Assembly (NCBI RefSeq): GCF_006345805.1
Contig: NC_043000.1
Coordinates: 8,370,001-8,434,000, forward strand
Direction of reading: 5' to 3'
Origin: Octopus sinensis
Lineage: Eukaryota
DNA: 64,000 bases
This document shows positions 14,155 to 54,775 of the stretch, piece after piece. Each line of letters starts with the position of its first letter. The stretch's first letter is position 1. The position numbers and the translations under genes were made by a program. A model generated the notes under the pieces. The model did not search any database. It saw nothing but the letters and a program-made list of their open reading frames with translations, and was not told the origin of the DNA.

Positions 14155-17100
14155 ATACACATGGAGATGGTATGTATGGTGCAGATGAAGGAGTGGTTTT
14201 GACTTCTCCTCCCTCAACATGTGATCGTGATGAGAGCTATGCAAAAGGGATTCCGCCGTACGGCTTGCTGACACATTCATCACAAGATGGGTTTTCTTCT
14301 TCCGATAAAACAGGTGATGTCACTTCTCCTGCTGATGCTTGTTATGAGTTTCATACTGCTACACCTGACATTACTTCCCCTCCATCACCTGATTCTCATG
14401 GTGATATAAGTATTTTATCAGCTCAAGGGCAACAAGTTCAACCTTCGTCCCTCCACGAAAGTGTTAGCCCTCATGTAATTGAAAAGGATGTAAAACCTCA
14501 TACGATAACTTTTAGTACTTCGGCTAATCCCAAACCCCAAATTACAGGAATGGAGTTGAATATTGAAAAAACTGAATTTCCTTCACTGCAGGGTTTAGAA
14601 AGTTGTGATAATGGTACCAAGTCTTTCAATAAATCTCAGTGCCTGCCTTCTGAAACAAATGTCAAAAGTATGGATGTAGTAGATAGTTCTAAACCTTCAT
14701 TAGAACATGTTTCCGAGCTTGAAGTTGATGTCAGCAAAGCACCCCAGTCTGATGGAACATCTGCTGCAAGCAGCAAATCTGAAGGGAGCAAAGAAACTTT
14801 GACATTAATTTCATCAGAATCTTGTCAAATATCTATTACCAAAACTGAAGAAGAAAGTGATTCCGAATCTGAAGAAAATTCTGTTATAGAGAGAGATCCC
14901 TCACTGCTGGACTCTGATTCAACAGGTTACGGAGACCAGAAGTCTGACACTGATAGCTCGTATGTTGAAGAAGAAGAAGTGTCAATTTCTGATTCAGACG
15001 AATCAATTCCTTTTGGAAACTCTGATAATAAAGAAACAGAAAAGAAGAAATCTTTTGATGAAGAATTAATTTCGAAACAAACTGCTGCTGAAACTTCATA
15101 TATTGAAAGTCAAGAAAGGATGCCTACATTTTATACTGATGCTTTGGATTCTCGACAAAATCATGAAGCATCCAGTACAAGTGCAGACAGCAAGAAAGAG
15201 TGCCAAAAAAGTGAAGTTATTGCGAAATCTAAGGTTGGTTCACTGTCGAGTAGTGACTCAACTTCAGATTCAGCAGCAAGTATCATAGAAACTGTACCTC
15301 AGAAATTGAAATCTGAACTGTCATCAGTGTCTCAAAAATCTACAACGTCAAATGTAGTAGAAACTTCAAGTGCAGTGAAGTTGTTATCGTCAGTTGAGGA
15401 AGATGATCCAAATTTTCAGGAAGGCCCTCAAACTGTTGAAGACAGTTCTTCAGATAGGGATGAATATATGTATACATCCGATATTGAAGCTAAAGTCATC
15501 CAAGAAAAAATTGAATCTCTCATTTCAGAAGTAGCTGAAGAAATGAGAAAAGGTCAATGCTCATTTGATGAAACAATAAAGGAATATCATACAGAAACTC
15601 TTAAGGCATTGGAAGCTGTTGAGGGTGATAATCATTCCTCAGGAGATATGCCTGATGAGAGTTTGGAACAGTACTATTCTTTAGATGAAACTCACAGTGT
15701 TGACAGTAATGAGACACTTGAATTTGCTGAAGAAAGTGCTGAAATGAAAGATACAGAAATGGTTGTGACAGCTGACATGACAGCATCTGATGATGTGATG
15801 AAAAAGGTTGTGGATGACTCTAAAAAGAGCTTCGAAGAAGAAAGTTTGAAAAAAAGTGTAATATCCCCTAAGATGGATATTGGTAGCTTGTCAGAGTTGG
15901 AAGCAGTTCCTTCTAAAGTTGAAAAGTCTATTTTGGAAGCTAAAGTGGTTTCAATAGAAGGAAATCCAACAGAGACAGAAGAGGCCCACAGAAAAAGTAT
16001 GGAAACATGTCCAACTGACAAAGCTCATATACAAGAGGTAAGTGTGAAAGACCAAAGCAAGGAAGCATCAGAAACAAGCAAGGAGGTTGAATGTTTGAGG
16101 GAAATAAAAACGAAACCAAAGGAGAGCGATACCCATTTGGAAGAAGACTCACAAGATATTACTGGTATACCTTCTGGTACTTATCTTGGGAAAAGACTAA
16201 GCCTTGTAGAGTTTATGGCAGAAAGTCCCCGCGAAATGATGGAAATTGCTAGAAGAGGAAGTATCATTGACACAAAGTCAGTTTTTTCTGAGGTTACCCA
16301 AATGAAGCCGATAGAATCCTCTCCCATAGTAGTTAAAGAGCAAACAGCAATTTCAGAGCCTGCACCCACATTAATAAAAATGGATGTAAAATATACAGAC
16401 ACTGTTCCTCCTCTAGCAAAAGAGGAAATATTCGTTGAAAAGACTGCACCTTGTGAGGTTGAAGAAATAAAAGCAGTAGAGACTGAAGAAATTGTGGTTA
16501 AAAGTGTACAACCTACAGAATCAGTTTCTCTTTTTGAAAAAATAGAACATCCTGAAACAACTGCATATCCTCTAATTAAAGAAGAGAAGGCTATTAAAAT
16601 GATCCCATGTACTCCACCGGAATCCACTGTACATGAAGTAAAACTAAAAGAGACTGCACCTTCTGGGATTAAAGAAGAAAAAGCTATTAAAACAATCCCT
16701 TGTACTCCGCCTGAACCCATAAAACAAGAAGTAAAGCCATTAGAAACTGCATCCGCAATGATCAAACAAGAGCTAAAAGAAGATGTTGAGGCTGCACCTT
16801 TAGTTAAAAAAGAAGAAACTCCAGCAGAAACTACATCCACAGTGATAAAAGAAGAAGTAAAACCAGCAGATACTGCACCAACAGTGATAAAAGAAGAGGT
16901 GAAACAAGTTGAAACAACTCCTACAATGGTTAAAGAGGAGGTAAAACCAGCTGAGACTGTACTTACAGAGGTTAAAGAGGAGATAAACCATTTAAAAGAA
17001 ACAACTTTCGACTCACAAGATATTGCCAGTGTTCCTCCTGATACTTTTCTGGAAAAAAGACTAAGTCTGGTAGAATTTATATCAGAAAATCCATTAGAAG

Positions 17101-20100
17101 TTATGGATTTAACCAGAAGTGGAAGCATTATCAAAACAACTGAACCAGACAAAACTGATGATAATCCTGGTGATGGTGAAAAATCACACATTAAAAATGG
17201 TATAAATCCCACAAAAACTGAATCTGCTGAAGTCAAAGAAGAGACTTTGTGTGTCAGTACTGAACCCGGTGAAACAAAACCCCCCTCTGTTACAGATAAA
17301 GATGAAGCAAAATTAAAAGAATCTGCCAAAGATGATGAGCCAGAAATATTTAAAAGTGCTGTTTCTATAACTGAAGAAAGTATAAAACCAACTCAACCTG
17401 TTCCTGCAAACATTGAAGAGGAAATGAAAGCAGCAGAAATTGCATCTGCAGAGGTTAAAGAGAAAGTAAAGCCAGTAGAAACTGCGTCTACAGGTGCAGA
17501 AGTAGAGGTAAAACCGACAGAAGCTGTAATTATGGAGAAAGAATTAGACAAGATAACTCCAGATATAAAAGAACTAAAACCTACAAAGATGGCGCCTATA
17601 GAGTTTCCAGAAGAAACGTTGATTGATATTGCAGATGATGAGCTAAAACCTGCCAAGATTGCCCCCATGGAAATTTCACTTGCAAAGGTTGAAGAAGTAA
17701 AACCAACGGAAACTGCATTTACAGAGATCAAAGAAGTGACGCCTGCAGGAATGGTAACCACAGAAGAAATACCAGCAGAAAATGTAGCCACAGTGATAAA
17801 AGAAGAAATAACAGCTTCAAAGTTTGAAGCAGTGACGATGCCTGTAGAGACAGCATCTGAAGAAAGTGTGAAACTAATAGAGACAGGACCGTTAACTGCA
17901 GAAGTGGAAGTAAAATCTGCAGAAATTTTAAAGACCTTGGCTAAAGATGATGTTGCAAGTGAAGAAGCTGTGCCTACAAAAGTTAAAGAGGAAACAGCTC
18001 AAGAACCAGCATGTGTAGAAGTCAAAGATGTTGACATTATTGCATTTCAAGAGAAAGATGAAATACAACCAGCAGATACCAAACCTCCTGTGATCAAAGA
18101 AATGAAACCTGCAGATACTCTAGTCAAAGAGGAATTAGAGTTTGTAGAGGCTCTGCAAACAACAAAACCTTTAGAAACCCTCCCCGTGGAAGCCACTGTG
18201 GAAGTAAAACTGTCCAAAACTACTCCCATGGAAGAGCCAGATCAAATGAAAGTTTTAGAAGGGGCAACTGTTGAAATGAAGCCTCCAGATTCTAGTATTA
18301 TTCATGTTGAACCTGCCAGCGTGACATTGAGTGAAGGTGTGAAACCGACCGATGTTGCCGCTATAAAAGAAGATAGCCCTGAAGAGGTTATGTCTAGCAA
18401 AGCAAAAGAAGAAAAAAGTGGATCTGAAATGATGGATGATTCAGATGACAAGAGTGCACTCTTGGTCACTGCACCTGAAGAACAAAGCAAAGTGGCACAT
18501 GCAGAGGTTATTATTGAAAAGAAAACAATTGTGGAAGTTCAAACCAAAGCAACTACTGAAGATCCTTTGAAGGGTGCTGAAGAAATAGCTCTCGATAAAG
18601 AAATATCTCAAAGTGTTACTAAAGAGCAGACAGATGTATTGGATGCACCGTGTGAAGTTGCAGAGAAAGTAAGACCTGGTACTAGTGAGGAATCATTACC
18701 TGTTCAAGAGAATGTTATGCATGAATCTATCACAACTGAATTTGCTAACAAGATAGATTTAGAAAAATCTGAGTTAGAAGATTTTATCCAAATGGGTCAA
18801 CCTGAAAAATCACCAAGTTCTAGTTTAGCATTTGTTAAAGAACCTGATTCTCATAGTTTAAGTGATCAAATTGAATCATCTATTAGCTATCATAGTAAAG
18901 ACATTGAGAAGGAAGCTATAATTACTGAAGTACAGGATGAGCATAAATCAAGTAGTATTGACTTAGTTACCGATGCTAATTTAAATGCCTTAGAGGCACC
19001 GAGTTTTGAAACTGTAGTTGAAAAGCCAGCTGATAATCTTTCAAAAGCTGATCTAAAAGAATCTGAGGCATCAAAAGATGCCTCCAAGACTGATGAAGTC
19101 GCAAAGAGGATAGCTGAGGCTACAGTCTGTGAGGTTGTGGAGAAAGTACACCCATCTGACTCCGCAACAACTAAGATTGTAGAGAAAGTAAATCTGAGCA
19201 GTGCTGCAACAGCTGAGCTTGTAGAGGAAGGAGGAAAAGCTGACACTACAACCTCTGATGTTGCAGAAGTAATCCAATCAGTTGTGACTGCCGAAAGTAA
19301 GTCTGATGGTAGAGAGGAGAAATATGAGGACAAGGACATGAAACAACCGTCGAAACATACAGCTGAGACAGTGTCTTCTGAGCAAGAACTGGAGTCTACT
19401 AAAAATGTGAGTGGAATTTCACTGCAAGATGTTAAACCGTCTGAGACTGCAACATTTGCTGTTGCAAAAGATCTAATAATGCCTGACAATTTAACCGATG
19501 ATGTCAAACCATCAACCGAAACTGCACCCACAACTGATTGTGTAAAGAAGGATGATGATGCAGTCGATGCATTTGTTGCACCAGTAGCATCCATTCAACA
19601 TGAACCAATAGCAAGACAGTCAATGGAAGAAAGTCAGATTGACAAAACAACTATGGTGGAAAAATCAGATGCAGAAAAGCTAGAAGTTGATCTTCCAGGA
19701 AGTTCATTACAAGAGTTTGGCCAGGAATATGATGAGAAAGGTGATGAAGTAGAATTAAGCAAAGATACTCATGCAAAAGTAAAGGATATGAATGTAGTTG
19801 ATATCAGTAAAGAAGGTGAAGACGTAGTAGACTTATTAGATTCAGGGGCTTCATCTGAAGGGGTTAGTAATATAGAAGGTACAGATGTAGCAACTGCAAA
19901 AATTGAAGCTAAAATAGTTGAAGAAGAAAGAAAACTATTAACAGAGATTAAGCCAGAAGAAGTTCAGAAAGTTACAGTTGCAGAACCTGCAATAGAACTG
20001 GTGCAAGAAGAGACATCTGCTAAAATTGTTCCTGGAGATGTTGAAGTGAAAGAATCACAGAGAGAATATGAAGAAATGACTTGCGGAAAAGAAGAGGAGA

Positions 20101-23100
20101 TTATGAAACCAGCCGAGAGTGCACCACCATTGGCTAAAGATAGTGTGAGATCAGTAGAAACTGTAATTTCAGCTACCACTGTATCAAGTGAGGTTGAACA
20201 AGAGCAATCTAAAGAAACTGAGTCAACATCTATTAAAGAAAAATTAACATCTACAGAGACTACAGACACCACAGTTGATGAAGAAACAGTAAAACCTGCA
20301 GAGGTTAAAAAAGAGGAAAAACCAGCTGAGATCAAAGCAGAAGAAACTTTGGTTGCATTAGTTAAGGAAGAAGTAAAACCAACAGAAACTGCACCTTCAC
20401 TGATTAAAGAAGAAACAAAACCAGTTGAGACTGCACCGCCAGTGGCTAAACAAGAGGCAGAAACTGAAGGAAAGGAGAGTGATAGCCATTTGGAAGAAGA
20501 TTCACAAGATATTGCTAGCATACCTTCAAGTACTTATCTTAAGAAGAGACTAAGTCTGGTCGAGTTTATGGCAGAAAGTCCATTGGATGTCGTGGAAATA
20601 AGTAGAAGGGGAAGCTTCATTCCAACAAAAGGGCCAGTGGTTTCTGAGGTTACACAAATAAAGCAGATAGAGACAAAATCTGCAGAGCAAACAGCAATTG
20701 CAGAGCCTGCACCTACATTAATTAAGGTGGATAAAATTGCTCCAGAAATGACACCAGAAGTTATTCAAGACAACAAGCAAACAACTCAAGAGGTTTCTGA
20801 AAAGGAACATGCAGAAGATCTAGAAAAGGAAACAGTGGATGCTGTTGCAGATTTTCAAAAAGAATCTGTGGCGGCTCCCGAGGAGAAACCTGTGGGAGCT
20901 CTTGAAGAGAAACCTGTGGAAGCACCTGAGGTGAAACCAGAGGAGGCTCCTGAAGAGAAACCTGTGGAGGCTCTTGAAGAGAAACCTGAGGAAAAACCTG
21001 TGGAGGCTCCTGAGGCAAAACCTGTGGAGGCTCTTGAAGAGAAACCTGTGGAGGCTCCTGATGCAAAATCTGTGGATGCTCTTGAAGAGAAACCTGAGGA
21101 AAAACCTGTGGAGGCTCCTGAGGCAAAACCTGTGGAGGCTCTTGAAGAGAAACCTGTGGAGGCTCCTGATGCAAAATCTGTGGATGCTCTTGAAGAGAAA
21201 CCTGAGGAAAAACCTGTGGAGGCTCCTGAGGCAAAACCTGTGGAGGCTCTTGAAGAGAAACCTGTGGAGGCTCCTGAGGTAAAACCTGTGGAGGCTCCTG
21301 AAGAGAAACCTGTGGAGGCTCTTGAAGAGAAACCTGTGGAGGCTCCTGAGGTAAAACCTGTGGAGGCTCTTGAAGAGAAACCTGAGGAAAAACCTGTGGA
21401 GGCTCCTGAGGCAAAACCTGTGGAGGCTCTTGAAGAGAAACCTGTGGAGGCTCCTGAGGCAAAACCTGTGGAGGCTCTTGAAGAGAAACCTGTGGAGGCT
21501 CCTGAAGAAAAACCTGTGGAGGTTCCTGAGGCAAAACCTATAGAGGCTCCTGAGGAGAAACCTGTGGAGGCTCCTGAGACAAAACCTGTGGAAGCTCCTG
21601 AAGAGAAAATTGTGAAGGCTCCTGAGGTGAAACCTGTGGAGGCTCCTGAGGTAAAACCTGTGGAGGTTCCGGAGGAGAAACCTGTGGAGGCTCCTGAAGA
21701 GAAATCTGTGGAGGCTACTGAGGTGAAACCTGTGGAGACTCTTGAAGGGAAACCAACAGAAGCTCTTGAAGTGAAATCAGTGGAGGTTCCTGAAGAGAAA
21801 TCTGCAGAAGCGCCTGAGGTGAAACCTGTGGATGCTCTCGAAGAGAAAATTGTGGAGGCTACTGAGGTAAAACCAGAGGAGGCTCCTGAGGTAAAACCTG
21901 TGGAGACTCCTGAGGTGAAACCTGTAGAGGTTCCTGAGGCAAAACCTGTGGAGGCTCCTGAAGGGAAACCTGTGGAGGCACCTGAAGAGAAACATAAAGA
22001 AGCTCCAGAGGAGAAACTTGTGGAGGCTCCTGAGGTGAAACCTGTGGAGGCTCCTGAAGAGAAACCTGTAGAGGCTAAACCTGTGGTGTCTATTGAGGAG
22101 AAACCTGTGGAGGCTCCTGAGGAGAAACTTGTAGAGGTTCCTGAAGAGAAACCTGTTGAGACTTCTGATGTGAAACCTATGGAGGTTCCTGAGGATAAAT
22201 CTGAGGTGTCTGTTGAGGAGAAACTTGTGGTGTCTCCTGAGGTGAAACCTGTGGAGGCTCCTGAGGCAAAAACTGTGGAGGCTGTGGAAGAGAAATCTGT
22301 GGAGGCTCCTGAAGAGAAACCTGTGGAGGCACTTGAAGAGAAACCTGTGGAGGCTCCCGAGGCGAAACCTGTGGAGGCTCCTGAGGTGAAACCTGTGGAG
22401 GCTCTTGAAGAGAAACCTGTGGAGGCTCCTGAGGCAAAACCTGTGGAGGCTCTTGAAGAGAAACCTGTGGAGGCTCCTGAGGGGAAACCTGTGGAGGCTC
22501 TTGAAGAGAAACCTGTGGCGGCTCCTGAAGAGAAACCTGTGGAGGCTCCTGAGGTGAAACCTGTGGAGGCTCCTGAGGCAAAACCTGTGGAGGCACCTGA
22601 GGCGAAACCTGTGGAGGCTCTTGAAGAGAAACCTGTGGAGGCTTTTGAGGCGAAACCTTTGGAGGCTCCTGAGGCGAAACCTGTGGAGGCTCTTGAAGAG
22701 AAACCTGTGGAGGCTCCTGAAGAGAAACCTGTGGAGGCTCCTGAGGCGAAACCTGTAGAGGCTCCTGAGGAGAAACCTGTGGAGGCTCCTGAGGCAAAAC
22801 CTGTGGAGGCTCTTGAAGAGAAACCTGTGGAGGTTCCTGAAGAGAAATCTGTGGAGGCTCCTGAAGAGAAATCTGTGGAGGCTCTTGAAGAGAAACCCGA
22901 GGAGAAACCTGTGGAGGCTCCTGAGGAGGCACTTGAAGAGAAACCTAGCGAGGCTCCTGAAGAGAGAACAGTGGAGGCTCCTGATGCGAAACCAGTGGAG
23001 GCTCCTGAGGAGAAACTTCTGGAGGCTACTGAAGTGAAACCCACTGAATCTCTTGAAGAGAACCTGAGGAGAAACCTGCTGAGGCTCCTGAGGCGAAACC

Positions 23101-26100
23101 TGTGGAGGCTCCTGAGGCGAAACCTGTCGAGGCTCCTGAGGAGAAACCTGTGGAGGCTCTTGAAGAGAAACCTGAGGAAAAACCTGTGGAGGTTCCTGAG
23201 GCAAAACCTATAGAGGCTCCTGAGGAGAAACCTGTGGAGGCTCCTGAAGAGAAACCTGTGGAGGCTCCTGAGGCAAAACCCGTGGAGGCTCTTGAAGAGA
23301 AACCTGTGGAGGCTCCTGAGGAGAAACCTGTGGAGGCTCTTGAAGAGAAACCTGAGGAAAAACCTGTGGAGGTTCCTGAGACAAAACCTATAGAGGCTCC
23401 TGAGGAGAAACCTGTGGAAGCTCCTGAGGCGAAACCTGTCGAGGCTCCTGAGGAGAAACCTGTGGAGGCTCTTGAAGAGAAACCTGAGGAAAAACCTGTG
23501 GAGGTTCCTGAGGCAAAACCTATAGAGGCTCCTGAGGAGAAACCTGTGGAGGCTCCTGAGGCAAAACCTGTCGAGGCTCCTGAGGGGAAACCTGTGGAGG
23601 CTCTTGAAGAGAAACCTGAGGAAAAACCTGTGGAGGTTCCTGAGGCAAAACCTATAGAGGCTCCTGAGGAGAAACCTGTGGAGGCTCTTGAAGAGAAACC
23701 TGAGGAAAAACCTTTGGAGGTTCCTGAGGCAAAACCTATAGAGGCTCCTGAGGAGAAACCTGTGGAGGCTCCTGAGGCGAAACTTGTGGAGGCTCCTGAG
23801 GCGAAACCTGTGGAGGCTCTTGAAGAGAAACCTGAGGAGGAACCTGTGGAGGCTCTTCAAGAGAAACCTGTGGAGGCTCCTGAGGAGAAACCTGTGGAGG
23901 CTCTTGAAGAGAAACCTGAGGAAAAACCTGTGGAGGTTCCTGAGGCAAAACCTATAGAGGCTCCTGAGGCGAAACCTGTGGAGGCTCTTGAAGAGAAACC
24001 TGAGGAGAAACCTGTGGAGGCTCCTGAGGCAAAACCTGTGGAGGCTCTTGAAGAGAAACCTGTCGAGGCTCCTGAGGAGAAACCTGTGGAGGCTCTTGAC
24101 GAGAAACCTGAGGAAAAACCTGTGGAGGTTCCTGAGGTAAAACCTATAGAGGCTCCTGAGGAGAAACCTGTGGAGGCACCTGAAGAGAAACCTGTGGAGG
24201 CTCCTGAGGTGAAACCTGTGGAGGCTCCTGAGGCAAAACCTGTGGAGGCTCTTGAAGAGAAACCCGAGGAAAAACCTGTGGAGGTTCCTGAGGCAAAACC
24301 TATAGAGGCTCCTGAGGAGAAACCTGTGGAGGCTCCTGAAGAGAAACCTTTGGAGGCTCCTGAAGAGAAACCTGTGGAGGCTCCTGAGGCAAAACCTGTG
24401 GAGGCTCTTGAAGAGAAACCTGAGGAGAAACATGTGGAGGCTCCTGAGGTGAAACCTGTGGAGGCTCTTGAAGAGAAACCTGTGGAGAAACCTGTGGAGG
24501 CTCCTGAGGTGAAACCTGTGGAGGCTCTTGAAGAGAAACCTGTGGAGAAACCTGTGGAGGCTCCTGAAGAGAAATCTGTGGAGGCTCTTGAAGAGAAACC
24601 TGTGGAGGCTCCTGAGGCGAAACCTGTGGAGGCTCCTGAGGCGAAACCTGTGGAGGCTCTTGAAGAGAAACCTGTGGAGGCACCTGAGGTGAAACCTGTG
24701 GAGGCTCCCGAAGAGAAACTTGTGGAGGCTCCTGAGGCAAAACCTGTGGAGGCTCCTGAGGTGAAACCTGTGGAGGCTCCTGAAGAGAAACCTGAGGAGA
24801 AACCTGTGGAGGCTCTTGAAGAGAAACCCGAGGAGAAACCTGTGGAGGCTCCTGAGGCGAAACCTGTGGAGGCTCCTGAAGTAAAACCTGTGGAGGCTCT
24901 TGAAGAGAAACCTGAGGAGAAACCTGTGGAGGCTCCTGAGGTGAAACCTGTGGAGGCTCCTGAGGAGAAACCTGTGGAGGCTCCTGAAGAGAAACCTTTG
25001 GAGGCTCCTGAAGAGAAACCTGTGGAGGCTCCTGAGGCAAAACCTGTGGAGGCTCTTGAAGAGAAACCTGAGGAGAAACATGTGGAGGCTCCTGAGGTGA
25101 AACCTGTGGAGGCTCTTGAAGAAAAACCTGTGGAGAAACCTGTGGAGGCTCCTGAGGTGAAACCTGTGGAGGCTCTTGAAGAGAAACCTGTGGAGAAATC
25201 TGTGGAGGCTCCTGAGGCAAAACCTATGGAGGCTCTTGAAGAGAAACCTGAGGAGAAACCTGTGGAGTCTCCTGAGGTGAAACCTGTGGAGGCTCTTGAA
25301 GAGAAACCTGTGGAGAAACCTGTGGAGCTCCTGAAGAGAAATCTGTGGAGGCTCTGAAGAGAAACCTGTGGAGGCTCCTGAGGCGAAACCTGTGGAGCTC
25401 CTGAGGCGAAACCTGTGGAGGCTCTTGAAGAGAAACCTGTGGAGGCACCTGAGGTGAAACCTGTGGAGGCTCCCGAAGAGAAACTTGTGGAGGCTCCTGA
25501 GGCAAAACCTGTGGAGGCTCCTGAGGTGAAACCTGTGGAGGCTCCTGAAGAGAAACCTGAGAGAGAAACCTGTGGAGGCTCTTGAAGAGAAACCCGAGGA
25601 GAAACCTGTGGAGGCTCCTGAGGCGAAACCTGTGAGGCTCCTGAAGTAAAACCTGTGGAGGCTTGAAGAGAAACCTGAGGAGAAACCTGTGGAGGCTCCT
25701 GAGGTGAAACCTGTGGAGGCTCTTGAAGAGAAACCTGTGGAGGCTCCTGAAGAGAAACCTGTGGAGGCTCCTGAAGAGAAACCTGTGGAGGCTCCTGAGG
25801 CGAAACCTGTGGAGGCTCCTGAAGAGAAACCTGTGGAGGCTCCTGAGGTGAAAACTGTGGAGGCTCCTGAGGGAAAACCTGTGGAGGCTCTTGAAGAGAA
25901 ACCTGAGGAGAAACCTGTGGAGACTCTTGAAGAGAAACCCGAGGAAAAACCTGTGGAGGCTCCTGAGGCGAAAGCTGTGGAGGCTCCTGAAGTAAAACCT
26001 GTGGAGGCTCTTGAAGAGAAACCTGAGGAGAAACCTGTGGAGGCTCCTGAGGAGAAACCTGTGGAGGCTCCTGAGACGAAACCTGTGGAGGCTCCTGAAG

Positions 26101-28659
26101 TAAAACCAGTGGAGGCTCTTGAAGAGAAACCTGAGGAGAAACCTGTGGAGGCTCCTGAGGCGAAACCTGTGGAGGCTCCTGAGGTGAAACCTGTGGAGGC
26201 TCCTGAAGTAAAACCTGTGGAGGCTCTTGAAGAGAAATCTGTGGAGGCTCCTGAGGCGAAACCTGTTGAAGCTCTTGAAGAGAAACCTGTGGAGGCTACT
26301 GAGGTAAAACCTGTGGAGGCTCTTGAAGAGAAACCTGAGGAGAAACCTGTGGAGGCTCTTGAAGAGAAACCCGAGGAAAAACCTGTGGAGGCTCCTGAAG
26401 TAAAACCTGTGGAGGCTCTTGAAGAGAAACCTGAGGAGAAACCTGTGGAGGCTCCTGAAGTGAAACCTGTGGAGGCTCCTGAAGTAAAACCTGTGGAGGC
26501 TCTTGAAGAGAAACCTGAGGAGAAACCTGTGGAGGCTCCTGAGGCGAAACCTGTGGAGGCTCCTGAGGTGAAACCTGTGGAGGTTCCTGAAGTAAAACCT
26601 GTGGAGGCTCTTGAAGAGAAATCTGTAGAGGCTCCTGAGGCGAAACCTGTTGAAGCTCTTGAAGAGAAACCTGTGGAGGCTACTGAGGTAAAACCTGTGG
26701 AGGCTCCTGCAAAGAAACCTGTGGAGGCTCCTGAGGAGAAACCTGTGGAGGCTCCTGAAGTAAAACCTGTGGAGGCTCCTGAGGAGAAACCTGAGGAGAA
26801 ACCTGTGGAGGCTCCTGAAGTAAAACCTGTGGAGGCTGCAGAGGAGAAACCTGAGGAGAAACCTGTGGAGGCTCCTGAAGTAAAACCTGTGGAGGCTCCT
26901 GAGGAGAAACCTGAGGAGAAACCTGTGGAGGCTCCTGAGGTGAAACCTGTGGAGGCTGCAGAGGCAAAACCTGTAGAGGTTCCTGAAGAGAAACCTGTGC
27001 TATCTGCTGAGGAGACACTTGTGGAAGCTCGTGGAGAGAAACCTGTGGAGGTTCCTGAAGAGAAACCTATAGAAGCACCTGAGGAAAAACCTGTGGAGTC
27101 TACTGAGAAAGTACCTGTGGAGGCTCCTGCAGAAAAACCTGTGGAAGCTGTTGAAAAGATATCTGTGGAGTCTACAGAGGAGAAATCTGTGGAGGCTCCT
27201 GAGGTTGCATTATCGGGTGTTACTCTTACGGATGGTAGGAAGTTAGTTGAAAAGGAAGAAAGTACAGGGACTGAAATCTGTGGTGAAGCACAAGGCAAAG
27301 ATTCTGACCAGATGGGTCTTTTAACAGCAATTCTTGATGAAGAAAATCAGAATGTACCATCAGTAGATAGCATTAGTGACTCTGTTGTATCAACTGTATG
27401 TGAAATTGGTGTTGCAAAGAAAGTTGAACCAGAGATGCCAAAGGAAAGCCAAGCAACTGAAGTGTCTGATATATCAGAAGTAGATTCATTGAAGTTCAAT
27501 GGTGATCACTCAGAAGTGAAACTGTCTGACAGTGGTCTCGATCATTCTGGTGTTTCCACTGAATTTCAAAATGAAGTGGCAAAATCAAATCTTACTGCTG
27601 TTGAATCTAATAAAGACATTGCTGACCAAATTGGCGATATATCACTTGGAACTGCTGTTAGTGCTAAAGATGAGGTAGAATCTGTGATAAAACCTATTTC
27701 TGTTGAAGAAACTCCTCAGATTGAATTGAAAAGTAATAAGGTGTCCAAAGCTGATTCTGAGAGCCAACCAATTGATACAGTCAATGAAAAGCAAGCATAT
27801 TCAGATATTGAACACTTGCAAAAACTAAATGGTGATTTGTTACCAAAAGATCTTGAAGAGATTGTCAAAGTAACTAAGACTGAAGATGGCAATACTGTCA
27901 ACAAAGTTGAGCTGCTGGTTCAAAAGAAAGCTAAGATTTTGACCTCTGAGCAAATTATCAAAGATAACCAGAAAATGACTAAAACCAAAGACACAAAACT
28001 GAAAAAGTCTAAAAAGAAAGAGTCTAAGAGTAAAAGTCGTGGAGAAATAACTCCTGGAAAAGAAGGAGTTCGATCTAAATCCTCAAAAAGCAGTCCGGAG
28101 AAAGGTGTAAAAAAAGAGAAAAAGGCGTCATCACTTGTCAGTACTCCAAAACAGAAATCAACCTCTTCCTCTAAGCAAAGTTCAAGTTCAATGAAGAAAT
28201 CAAAAGGAAGTAGTAGCCCTACAAAATCCAAGTCTAGTTCTTCGAAAAGCAAGGGCACAAGTAGTACTGAAAAAGTAAAACCAGTACTTAGGTCTGTCTC
28301 TTCACCCCCCAAAGCAAGCAGTAGCCCTATAAAAACAGATAGTATTGATTCTTCAAAAGTATCTGATTCATCCCTGAAGAAAGAAAACAATACTTTGCCT
28401 GCTGAGAAACCACGAGGAAGATCAACAAGTAGGAGCGTCATACTGAAGAGAACTACCAAAACTGAAAAATTAAGACTGGCAATGATAAAAAACACTTTGG
28501 AAGCTAGTCAGAACCAAGTTGGTCCAGCATATTCACATTCTCCAAGTGCCCGCCGAATACGCAGCTGCAGTCCCCAAAAAACCTCTCGAGTGACATCACC
28601 TGATAAAAGGACAGGATCACCTTTGAAGACAAAGTCAACCACTGCCCGTTCAAGAAAAG
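14155..28659 (+). CDS. Giant coding exon (14,505 nt, ~4,835 aa): acidic low-complexity projection-like domain, PEVK-like repeat array, basic Ser/Lys-rich tail; probably part of the downstream Tau/MAP2-family gene
   Basis: ORFs 14025-23213, 23102-25357 and 25689-28664 join into one reading frame broken only by 7 small indels in the repeat array; first and last ORFs share a frame. Acceptor ccatcctctttcag|AT at 14154/14155 (phase 1); donor AAAG|gttgaa at 28659/28660 (phase 1). The link to the Tau exons is inferred from strand, phase match and MAP2-like charge order. Confidence 0.8.
16119..20732 (+). repeat. Three dispersed copies of a protein module DSQDI..IP..T(Y/F)L.KRLSLVEF..E.P......R.GS (16119-16385, 17010-17132, 20472-20732), interspersed with degenerate IKEEVKPxETAP repeats
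   Basis: Visible in the translation of ORF 14025-23213. Confidence 0.9.
20868..27203 (+). repeat. Coding tandem array of 24-nt units (with 12-nt gagaaacctgag/EKPE inserts) encoding (E/A/V)KPVEA(P/L)E, ~6.3 kb, roughly 260 unit-lengths
   Basis: Consensus gag aaa cct gtg gag gct cct/ctt gaa is seen directly throughout; higher-order duplications of several hundred bp are present. Confidence 0.97.
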
Positions 28660-30097
28660 GTTGAACTATCTGTATCAGCTTAATAGTCTTCCCTTGCAGC
28701 AAGCAATTGTGTATGCCTGGGTGTGTTAGCATTTTGTCTCCGTTCCGCTATTATTTTGCAGCTTGCATTGGACAAACCATATGTATAACCAGTTGTTTCA
28801 TAGCAGATGTAGCAATATACAGTGATATTGGTATTGATATACAGTGATATTACATTAAACCATAGAATTTGTATTGATTAAATGACTTTTTCATGGATGA
28901 ACTTAGTTGCCACAGTGATACCACTATTTGCTTTTAAGAATTTTTAATAATTATTGCTTAAAATATTGATTCTGGTTATTTAATTGCTTCTAGGATAAAT
29001 GCTATTTAAGTGGTATCACTGTTTTATTTATGGGTGTATAAAAAAATGTGCGTATATAATTGCATACTTATGTATATGTATGCATGTAACTTAGTGTTTT
29101 TTTTTCATGTACATGCATATATCAATATATGTACATTTTCAAATATGTATATATATGTGTGTATATTTTTGTGTGTGCAAGTGTGTGCAAGTAATGTGTG
29201 CCTGCATTTCTACAAGAGTTATTACCAACTTTTAAGTATGTTTCATTGGTGTGTGTAGAGTTGTGAACTCTATACACACATATCAGAATGTGTGAAAACG
29301 AATCTTCAAAATTATTTAAATATAAACACATATACATATAAATACATTTTGTACATACGCTCATTGTTAATTCATATAATATATATATAAACATATATAT
29401 ATTAGCTTTCTTAGCTTGCATGAAATTTTGTTTAAATTGTAAATTTACTAACTGCTTTCTAAGACTTTACATATGGTCAAATTTGTTGGTTGATTTTTTT
29501 TTTTTCTTTTATTGTATCAAAATGTTGTTGGTTCATTGTCACTGTATGTTGCTACTAATGTTCTGCTTGTTTTTTTTTTTAACCCGTTTAACCTTTCACC
29601 TTTCTGCATGATTATTATTATTCAAAGCCACAATTTGGGCATGTTGCAGTTGCAGATTTAGAACTTATTTGACAAGATATTGTAATCCCAACATTATTAT
29701 CTCCACCTCAGTTGCTGGCAGCTCAACATATAAAATTCACAAGCCAAAAAACCCACTTAATTTGTATTTTGATCTTAATTGCAGTCATTGTTAATTATTC
29801 ATTTCTCACATTACTCTGTACGTGCATGTGTATTTTCATGCATACATATACACATGCACATCTTTGCATAAACTTTTTTTTTTGTGTTTATATATACTCA
29901 TACTAAGACATTATTTGTGTATATAATTGTTTATTAAGCAAGCAAATGTGAATTGCCACGGTGTACATTTTGAATGCAATTTCAAATAATTTTGTTCACT
30001 TAAACAAGTTGTGTGAGACGTTGAACATCCTTGAAAGTCAAGAACTGCTGTCAACTGTAACCACTTTTCCAGAATGTAACTCTTCAAAATTGTTTAA

Positions 30098-32067: not shown

Positions 32068-33790
32068 ATACTTTGATACTTTGATAGGTTTCGGCCATTA
32101 TTGGCCCAGGCCATGTCTAACTTAATAGCACTACCTGGTGAAGTCTTTCAAGTCAGAATTTGGGCACTATGGCCCACTCAAGTAGAGAGTTATTGTTTAC
32201 AGAGACATATCCGGGTGTAGGGGGTTTATCCAGGATTTCTTGAAGGAATCTGTCCAAAGACTTCTTGAACCCTATAGGGTCAGTTTCTGTTTTAATGTGT
32301 TTTGGTGTAATGTTAAAGAGAGCGGGGCCAATTGAGGTGAAATAATTGTGCCATATTGTTGTTATGAGATGAGAGTGCGATTTTTGTTTTGGGCGGATGG
32401 CACGGGGCCCAAGCCTTGGATGTACCTTAAAGGTGATGCCAACATCATTTGGGCAATGCTGATGGAATATTTTCCACATCATGCAGATGATGTAGCGCTC
32501 ACAACGACGTTGGAGAGAATAAAGTTTTAGCTTTTCTAGTCGACCCCAATAGTCGAGGCCTGTCATGCCATCTATCTTTCTTGTGATTGCCCTTTGAGGT
32601 GCTTCAACTTTTATGATACTTTGTATTGTGTGAGAAGACCACAGTGGACAACAGTATTCAAGGTGGGGTCGGGCAAAAGTGGAAAAGAGAAGGATAATGG
32701 TGTGGATATCTCTCAACTGGAAAGTTCTGAGAATCCAGGAACACATTCTGCGGGCCATGTCAACTTTGGTGTTTATATGAGTGGCCCAGCTTATGTTGTT
32801 GTCCACAATTACTCCCAAGTCTCTGATGTTGTTGGACGCCGCGAGAGTTTCACCTGCCCATTGGATAACAGCCAGTAGATCTGACCGAAGGCATGTCCGG
32901 TCACTCGCCTCATTTATGACCTTCTGTAGCTTGGAATCATCTGCAAAGATTTTTATGTTGCTGTGCTTGATGATGTCATTGATGTCATTAATGTAGATGA
33001 TGAAAAGAAGTGGGCCCAGCACAGTGCCTTGCGGAACGCCACTACTGACTTTGGCTGGGCTTGATTTTACCCCTTCAACTACAACATGTTGAGATCTGTC
33101 TGTCAGGAAACACTTGATCCATTTCAGTAACTTTCCAGAGACACCAATGTTGGATAGTTTTTTCAATAGGATCTTGTGATCGACCCTGTCGAAGGCCTTA
33201 CTGAAATCAAGGTAGATGACATTGGTGTTGGAGCCCTCTCCCAAAGCTCTCAAAATGTCATCAAAGTGATGCAGGAGCTGCGTTAGGCAGTCCCTTCCAT
33301 TACGGAACCCATGTTGGTTAGAGATCAGCCGTCTGTTGCTTTCCAGAAATTGGGTTATTCGAGATCTCACCACCCTCTCAAATACCTTGATGATATGAGA
33401 GGTGAGTGAGATCGGACGGTAGTTCACTGCAAGGGACTTGTTTCCCTTTTTGAAAACTGGGACAACAGACTGGGACAGAAGGTTTTTTGGAATATAGCCA
33501 GCATCCAGTGAGTTTCTCCACAGATTAGCAAGGGGAGATGCAAGTTGGTGTCGACACACCTTCAGGACACAAGCAGGGAACCTATCGGGGCCTACTGCTG
33601 AATTGTGTTTTATTTCATTTATTGCCGCTAAGACATCAGGGGCGCTAAACGTTATGTCCGATATAGCGTGTTGGGGGTTGACATCACTGATACAGCCCAG
33701 ATCGGCCATATCAGGATTGCTGAAAACAGAGCAGTATTGTTTCTGCAGTATCTTGGCCATGGATTTGGCATTATCTTGGCAAATGAAAGA
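32068..33790 (-). mobile_element. 5'-truncated non-LTR retrotransposon (CR1/L2-group-like LINE) with reverse transcriptase ORF 32153-33760
   Basis: RT motifs NYRPISLTS, QHGFR, YLDFSKAFDRVDH, GVPQGTVLGPLLF, FADD, RDLGV, HLEYC; probable internal deletion after VIQWA; 3' UTR with short tandem tail (TATCAAAG); flanked by TA microsatellites. Confidence 0.93.
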
Positions 33791-34006
33791 CAGAAGTTGG
33801 AATATATATATATATATTTACATATGTATACATATATATATATTCATATGTATGCATGTATGTGTCTATATCTATCTATCTATATCTATATATATATATA
33901 TATATTCATGTATATTCATGTATATATATATATATATATATATACTTACACATACACACATGAGTATTTGTGTGTGTGTATGTATATGTGTGTGTGTGTG
34001 TGTGTG

Positions 34007-51009: not shown

Positions 51010-51050
51010 ATCAATTGTATGATCAGATGGAGTATGATGAAAATGAAAGG
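51010..51050 (+). CDS. 41-nt exon, (D)QLYDQMEYDENER, linking the giant exon to the repeat exons
   Basis: ttattttag|AT...AGG|gtatgt; phase 1 in, phase 0 out; matches the giant-exon donor and the 53343 acceptor. Confidence 0.7.
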
Positions 51051-53342: not shown

Positions 53343-53529
53343 CTCTCACCACTGTCACCAAATGCTAGAAAGAGATATGGGATCAATGCTAGAAATGAAA
53401 CTTATCGCCCAGGAGGAGGGAATGTTCGGATTTTCAGTGAAAAGATGGATTTCAAAAACGTTTCGTCAAGAATTGACTCACGCAGTAAATCCCCTCGGAA
53501 ATCCCCTCCTTCATCAACTCAGAGTCCGG
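53343..53529 (+). CDS. tau: Tau/MAP2-family exon: LSPLSPNARKRYGINARNETYRPGGGNVRIFSEKMDFKNVSSRIDSRSKSPRKSPPSSTQSP
   Basis: tttattttatag|CTC...CCG G|gtaagc; 187 nt, phase 0 to phase 1; PGGGNV-x-I...K-x-DF-x-NV-x-S-R-I-x-S resembles a tubulin-binding repeat. This frame is not the one shown in the ORF track. Confidence 0.85.
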
Positions 53530-54665: not shown

Positions 54666-54775
54666 CACGGCAAATAGCAGGAGCAGAACATTCCTCACCG
54701 TCACCAAGCTCTCGAAATGTTCGTTCTAAAATTGGATCTTTGGACAATGCTAGGCATACACCTGGTGGGGGAAAT
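54666..54775 (+). CDS. tau: Tau/MAP2-family microtubule-binding repeat exon: (A)RQIAGAEHSSPSPSSRNVRSKIGSLDNARHTPGGGN
   Basis: tatgtttttacgtag|CA...AAT|gtaagt; 110 nt, phase 1 to phase 0; canonical V-x-SKIGSLDN-x-x-H-x-PGGG repeat with KXGS motif. Confidence 0.93.

Follow-up and report, generated by a model that had tools for sequence, protein, structure and literature searches.

The present analysis concerns a 64,000-nt stretch of the Octopus sinensis genome (contig NC_043000.1, positions 8,370,001 to 8,434,000; the window, numbered from its first letter), in which a coding minisatellite of P, E, V, K and A residues lies in one transcribed exon (14155-28659) of a tau/MAP2/MAP4-family gene. 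We consider it fairly probable that this array is a disordered, acidic spacer that lengthens the arm of a predicted isoform of ~5,170 residues. The first-pass annotation of this DNA had described a titin-PEVK-like spring and missed the larger point, which is that the array makes up 44% of a giant exon that is likely skippable.

A giant exon in a tau-family gene

The array is assigned to one exon of 14,505 nt because RNA contigs splice this exon at both ends. RNA was taken from three runs of three studies, X4 (organism A) and X9 and X12 (organism B), and DNA from runs X1 and X11; the RNA label of the former was guessed, but the contig stop at the exon border confirms it. In X4, X9 and X12 alike, the contig across 27204-28659 is unbroken and ends at 28659, and RNA depth is 0 at 28764-29003, where DNA run X1 continues through. 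Past 28659, the contigs of X4 and X9 read the start of the 41-nt exon at 51010, and in the same two runs the upstream join is to an exon at C4:8363737-8363894 (C4 is the contig of the window), which carries an ATG behind an in-frame stop. With both borders spliced in two of the three RNA runs and both flanks covered, the giant exon is included in mRNA.

The gene belongs, as judged from its sequence, to the tau/MAP2/MAP4 family, and its product is predicted to bind microtubules. A genome-wide profile search with PF00418 gave seven matches over the cut-off, all at C4:8424710-8452018 and the first at ~54710 in the window; the same search found no second tau/MAP2/MAP4-type locus in the octopus genome. 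The hallmarks of the family are C-terminal PF00418 repeats in the same gene and frame, a basic Ser/Pro-rich region ahead of the repeats and, by charge profile, an acidic disordered projection, and all are present here. The earlier placement of the array in the projection region of a microtubule-associated protein (MAP) is thus borne out by the seven repeats downstream. Exons beyond 51010 were joined by splice phase only and small exons may be absent from the model, which is an open frame with a tau-like C-terminus, 336 amino acids (aa) long without the giant exon and ~5,173 aa with it. Two of the tubulin-binding exons (G000:C4:8446155-8446244 and 8447229-8447318) are near-identical tandem duplicates, including flanking intron. 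Expansion of the tubulin-binding repeats has been reported in molluscs, matching these two exons (PMC8985376).

In assembly graphs of 31 letters, the divergence of two isoforms brings a contig to its end. Where the contigs of X4 and X9 leave the giant exon, they read on for 28 nt into the upstream exon and for 27 nt into the downstream one. A long form together with a form that skips the exon predicts 28 and 27, intron retention 30 and 28; the match to the former is exact at both exon ends and in two organisms. The skip model is an open frame of 336 aa with GT-AG borders, and the giant exon has phase 1 on either side. Because the overhangs equal the long-plus-skip prediction and not that of intron retention, a second isoform without the giant exon is likely, and the gene would make a tau of ~336 aa as well as a giant form of ~5,170 aa. 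The donor of the giant exon (28659-28665) reads GTTGAA, a weak match to the consensus with an in-frame stop directly behind it. It may favour skipping, and read-through would yield the shortened end seen in the Octopus bimaculoides model P0004.

Table 1. Features of the giant exon and of the exons behind it, in window positions
Feature	Positions	Strand	Evidence
Giant coding exon; 14,505 nt in the assembly, or 4,837 codons with the net −6 nt of indels counted as errors; phase 1 on either side; likely cassette	14155..28659	+	Contigs of X4 and X9 with loose RNA ends at either border, their 28- and 27-nt overhangs fitting the skip model
Non-repetitive acidic projection segment (2,237 aa) without Pfam domain	14157..20867	+	91.5% identical to O. 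bimaculoides P0004
Copy 1 of thrice-repeated module with KRLSL and RRGS motifs	16119..16400	+	Sequence comparison
Copy 2 (short) of module	16995..17126	+	Sequence comparison
Copy 3 of module; RNA A>G at 20604, 20607 and 20613 alters RRGS	20472..20756	+	Sequence comparison, RNA contigs
P/E/V/K/A coding minisatellite, ~2,110 aa, 285 units	20868..27203	+	Repeat detection, unit parsing, lag-24 identity; genome search with unit core
Older degenerate island in array, apparently common to O. bimaculoides	21500..22300	+	Singletons make up 60-71% of units; units 13-39 of P0004 align weakly at unit level
One-base loss in A run, frameshift in assembly, probable error, without twin block	23061..23071	+	Frame analysis, unit parsing, block comparison
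Block with six indels and no substitution against 24506-24958; probable unpolished sequencing errors	25274..25721	+	447 matches, 0 substitutions, 6 gaps
Tail of exon (485 aa), its final 240 aa basic, Ser/Lys-rich (net +45), next to binding repeats	27204..28659	+	95.5% identical to P0004; one RNA contig across in each of 3/3 RNA runs
Next exon, 14 codons, 41 nt	51010..51050	+	Joined to giant exon in RNA; same join in RefSeq model P0003
Exon with degenerate PGGG repeat and Ser/Pro-rich linker	53343..53529	+	Join inferred from splice phase
Exon with first PF00418 tubulin-binding repeat	54666..54775	+	Profile match; six more past the window at G000:C4:8435892-8452018

An antisense open frame of 2,163 aa was rejected, GT-AG splicing being on the plus strand. 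The intron after the giant exon holds a reverse-transcriptase fragment of a retroelement on the minus strand (32156-33817; PF00078, E 3e-27).

Units, frame and turnover of the array

Tandem Repeats Finder places the array at 20866-27204 with a period of 24, and its lag-24 identity is 0.78, compared with a mean of 0.26 and a maximum of 0.28 in 200 base shuffles. Of the 285 parsed units, 236 have 24 nt, 41 have 12 nt and one has 15 nt, and the other seven are disrupted by indels of 1-2 nt. Units are of the KPVEAPEE type, with eight residues or, as half units, four; the most frequent are KPVEALEE (50), KPEE (34), KPVEAPEE (33), KPVEAPEA (30) and KPVEAPEV (28). The 2,057 residues of the 278 intact units, from which all composition figures were drawn, consist of E (32%), P (19.5%), V (14%), K (13.5%), A (13.1%) and L (3.8%). 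P, E, V and K amount to 79%, these four with A and L to 95.9%, and Ser plus Thr to 2.2%; the net charge is −0.19 per residue, literal PEVK occurs 40 times and there is no in-frame stop. The description first given, acidic units of these six residues with few Ser/Thr and many a literal PEVK, was therefore accurate. The units had also been called near-homogeneous and eight residues long, which fits the 236 units of 24 nt but neither the 41 half units nor the degenerate island at ~21500-22300. Homogenised synonymous sites, likewise claimed, are evident in the 24-nt units, where Lys1 is AAA in 231/236 and Pro2 and Val3 are CCT and GTG in 198/236 each; AAG is absent from the six codons listed at Lys1. 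When the 2.7-Gb genome was searched with a 20-nt unit core, the 81 exact matches listed all fell within the array, and a dispersed satellite was accordingly rejected. A match of the Gp5_trimer_C profile to the array was below the family cut-off and was taken as noise.

The size of ~2,100 aa proposed for the array agrees with the sequence as assembled, but the array is not one frame in the assembly: seven shifts had gone unnoticed, one at ~23061 and six at 25316-25670. Relative to 24506-24958, the block 25274-25721 has lost sequence in GG, TT or CT runs at five of the six gaps and gained a single base at the sixth. In decaying animal genomes, substitutions usually outnumber indels. Because six gaps without a substitution in 447 nt are unlike such decay and typical of a long-read segment left unpolished, the six indels are very likely due to sequencing error. 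The indel at 23061 is a probable assembly error. The twin blocks could also be a pair of alleles assembled one after the other, in which case the array is too long by several hundred bases.

RNA contigs enter the array at its edges (129-176 nt on the right, 20-71 nt on the left), so that at least these edges are not spliced out of all mRNAs, a possibility that had been raised for the array in the first-pass annotation. No single contig of X4, X9 or X12 joins both flanks. The X4 contig stops at 27036, the break predicted from a twin 31-mer at 22817, and so does DNA run X1. Since this break needs the twin deep in the array, it suggests that interior array sequence is present in X4 RNA. Gaps in the N-flank cover of X9 and X12 are low-depth contig gaps and carry no weight.

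A HMMER search of 1.84 billion representatives, for which the N-terminal 1,100 aa of the exon served as query, yielded one true relative, P0001, an O. bimaculoides protein filed as 'titin, partial'; the match P0002 was dropped as low-complexity. The cluster of P0001 also holds P0003 and P0004 ('titin-like'). P0001 ends and P0003 begins within the array, P0001 and P0004 diverge after 87 residues, and the array of P0004 has 621 aa. Its charge in O. bimaculoides (−0.19 to −0.20) is similar to that found here. KPEE accounts for 34/278 units here and for 0/76 and 0/42 in two O. bimaculoides models, while KLEEAPEV accounts for none here and for 5/42 in P0001; repeat units are not independent, so that Fisher values on unit types are only indicative. 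Recent turnover, as initially proposed, is supported by these differences and by 38 exact internal repeats of at least 70 nt, the longest of 200 nt. Because the orthologous exon holds an array and a weakly aligning degenerate island, sequence comparison dates the array before the split of the two octopus species, the homogeneous blocks being younger. A spanning tree of the 100 distinct 24-mers has 90 replacement, 43 silent and 15 multi-base changes. With the last excluded, dN/dS among units is crudely estimated at ~0.7-0.9, and no stop is seen where 3.3-6.8 are expected, again crudely, from 133 single changes. Apparently, the frame is under selection and the sequence hardly.

Upstream of the array, degenerate coding repeats of 93 and 42 nt (VKEEVKPAETAPT type) occupy 16575-16987, with an extra unit in O. 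bimaculoides; they may be older rounds of the same repeat growth. One X12 contig has an in-frame 15-nt deletion at 18482, i.e. the non-repetitive projection segment tolerates length change, too. This segment also holds the thrice-repeated module, whose copies (44-95 aa, 57-71% identity, motifs KRLSLVEF and RRGS) are present in O. bimaculoides. KRLSL and RRGS resemble the consensus of PKA sites, and the modules are candidate kinase or partner sites; a PDB sequence search with the module gave a single match, which was disregarded (E 0.86). In copy 3, the RNA of X4 and X9 reads G for A at 20604 and 20613, and that of X9 alone at 20607, turning RRGS into GRGG or GGGG. The A state persists at 20604-20613 in X12, in DNA run X11 and in the protein of O. 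bimaculoides. Further A>G sites common to RNA contigs of two organisms, at 15126 and 15133, are absent from X11 and from the O. bimaculoides protein, and A>G makes up 11 of the 21 listed differences. These sites are candidates for A-to-I recoding, three of them in one RRGS motif; alleles are the alternative. Since recoding is abundant in coleoid neural tissue (PMC8382921), the A>G sites hint at neural expression.

Spacer, by-product or spring

Judged by charge and hydropathy, every protein segment lies on the disordered side of the boundary. The structure-atlas model of P0003 has a predicted local distance difference test score (pLDDT) of 0.39 and no structural match over a template-modelling (TM) score of 0.2. 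Both results agree with the disorder expected at the outset. As far as the end of the array, all 250-aa bins of the exon are acidic (−0.08 to −0.21 per residue), and only the last 240 aa of the exon, adjoining the binding repeats, are basic (+45). The charge profile revealed no second basic microtubule-binding region in the N-terminal part, where 2,240 aa are acidic in every bin. Polymer scaling laws put the end-to-end distance of the array at 34-46 nm and that of the exon at 52-75 nm, or at 39-53 nm once the array is left out.

According to the model that we favour, the indels would be assembly errors and the frame open, and skipping of the exon would switch between a small tau of ~336 aa and the giant form. 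The basic tail and the binding repeats would grip the microtubule, and ~4,350 acidic residues would project outward as an entropic bristle, the long arm of the giant isoform holding neighbouring microtubules or organelles apart. Selection would keep frame, charge and disorder rather than sequence, and unequal exchange together with slippage would renew the units. A tethered entropic spacer is preferred over a loaded spring because one anchor is predicted and no second one is seen. We rank the spacer first, near-neutral growth second, a spring with two anchors third and an artefact last; the first two are compatible.

Several points speak against the spacer. By the scaling laws, doubling the arm gains merely ~13-22 nm of reach, and a dN/dS near 1 is equally compatible with neutral expansion. 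The tau brush model is contested, and the cross-bridge model is debated, too (PMC5002045). The giant protein is predicted from genome and RNA sequence, the length of the array and its indels are those of the assembly, and the indel at 23061 has no twin block for comparison. The skip junction (first exon to 51010) was deduced from contig ends. The HMMER search reached no orthologue of the exon outside octopus, either in squid and cuttlefish or in other molluscs. Of the three RNA runs only one stops at the predicted right-hand break (X9 stops at 27028 and X12 at 27075, both from the other organism), and the left-edge RNA contigs end at 20938 and 20887, neither of the two reaching the predicted 20971, to which DNA run X11 does extend. 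Allelic differences or low depth can explain these ends, and some transcripts may splice out part of the array.

Alternatively, the giant exon matters but the length of the array is a by-product of slippage and unequal exchange, that is, near-neutral minisatellite growth in a tolerant disordered region, filtered against stops and frameshifts only. The dN/dS of the units, the long exact repeats, the species difference in KPEE units and the little reach gained per extra residue all fit this explanation. However, the array is in frame with similar charge in both species compared, and 6 kb of extra mRNA and 2,100 extra residues would be costly, so that we regard it as unlikely.

The elastic spring on a cross-bridge proposed in the first-pass annotation has so far not gained support. 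As a titin-like loaded spring, the giant isoform would be anchored at a microtubule and at a second microtubule, a membrane or a partner, via the repeated modules or the N-terminus, and the array would stretch and recoil as soft arms and nerves deform. The high content of P, E, V and K is in favour of this, the three conserved modules could serve as binding sites, and tau cross-bridges and oMAP4 bundling are precedents (PMC5002045, PMC4423121). A worm-like chain of the length of the array gives 0.8-1.7 pN at 100 nm and 5-10 pN at 400 nm, a range that matches the up to 7 pN of single motors (PMC4423121). The charge profile showed no second anchor of the kind that a spring needs, though, the whole N-terminal part being acidic, and the array has neither an Ig domain nor the alternating segments of titin, PPAK (basic) and polyE (acidic). 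This makes a spring more doubtful still than near-neutral growth.

Finally, real frameshifts that truncate the protein near 23200, before the binding repeats, or an assembly that inflated a much shorter array are suggested by the seven indels, the possible tandem placement of alleles, the short array of P0004 and the disagreement of two O. bimaculoides models after 87 residues, but an artefact or dead segment is most improbable in view of indels that come without substitutions and mostly as losses in short runs, 278 intact units without a stop, a conserved tail that is intact and spliced in frame, and 100 distinct 24-mers, more than copying one short block would yield.

Relation to Big tau and titin

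The tethered spacer has its closest likeness in vertebrate Big tau, in which the optional MAPT exon 4a or 4a-L inserts an acidic, disordered, poorly conserved projection segment before the binding repeats, with wider microtubule spacing as the proposed effect (PMC9755724, PMC12896622). Exon 4a is an acidic disordered spacer whose size is kept and whose sequence is not (same sources); functional evidence on Big tau is called thin in PMC12896622. The octopus exon, at ~4,837 aa, is 19-fold larger than 4a (~250 aa; 4a-L has 355 aa), and unlike these it contains a tandem array of 2,100 aa and a basic tail of its own (240 aa). The likeness is one of layout, and for 4a itself the source argues independent origins. 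A lamprey tau-family protein of 2,777 aa is the largest met in the literature consulted (PMC9755724). No description of a giant cephalopod tau exon was found in the literature searched, most of it outside subscription journals.

Isoform-specific projection domains also distinguish high- from low-molecular-weight MAP2. mMAP4 and oMAP4 carry such domains on tau-type repeats, but the oMAP4 projection, at 48 kD, is far smaller, and a second microtubule-binding region has been proposed for oMAP4, for which there is no basic candidate here upstream of the tail (PMC4423121). The giant Drosophila isoform Ank2-XL organises axonal microtubules with Futsch (PMC6703079), but Ank2 is another family. Squid axolinin is an axonal microtubule-binding protein, but an identity is unsupported: it is described as a straight 105-nm rod with a globular head, insoluble at low salt, unlike a disordered acidic coil (PMC2114230).

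Convergence on titin PEVK, as originally suggested, holds for composition, disorder by charge-hydropathy and a similar length scale. Titin PEVK is an entropic spring encoded by 114 exons, in which motifs of 26-28 aa, basic PPAK and acidic polyE, lie next to Ig domains (PMC8553726), whereas the octopus array lies in one exon, has 8- and 4-aa units, is uniformly acidic and is followed by tau repeats. Among Pfam matches to exon and array at E≤0.1 there was no PPAK family, and with no Pfam family in either flank of the array there is no Ig domain. By these sequence criteria the array is not a titin element. This bears on the orthologous O. bimaculoides models of the giant exon, XP_052823633.1, XP_052823634.1 and XP_014781165.1, which are without a tubulin-binding repeat and are named titin or pharyngeal muscle protein. 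From the layout of the octopus genome described here we infer that they belong to LOC106878541, of which three fragments of one octopus MAP gene were reported, with isoform or fragment left open (PMC8985376, section 11). A naming error in the databases is thereby indicated, the orthologous exon being filed as titin and severed from its tau repeats.

Exons of the Big tau type are known; new is this extreme form of a projection exon, here likely optional, in a tau-family MAP. It is tempting to speculate, albeit tentatively and with the odds against it, that octopus independently evolved a 'giant tau', in which a splice switch between a 37-kDa and a ~560-kDa form, with reach or elasticity set by a fast-turnover PEVK-like minisatellite and modulated by A-to-I recoding of an adjoining kinase-type motif, tunes the spacing of microtubules, or the stretch that is tolerated, in axons that are large or extensible. 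The likeness to Big tau suggests that this solution arose outside vertebrates, too. If true, one gene would make two isoforms ~15-fold apart in length, and this in an animal whose large nervous system evolved independently. The rule that the length of the projection domain sets microtubule spacing, reportedly the topic of Chen et al. 1992, would thereby be put to an extreme test by nature.

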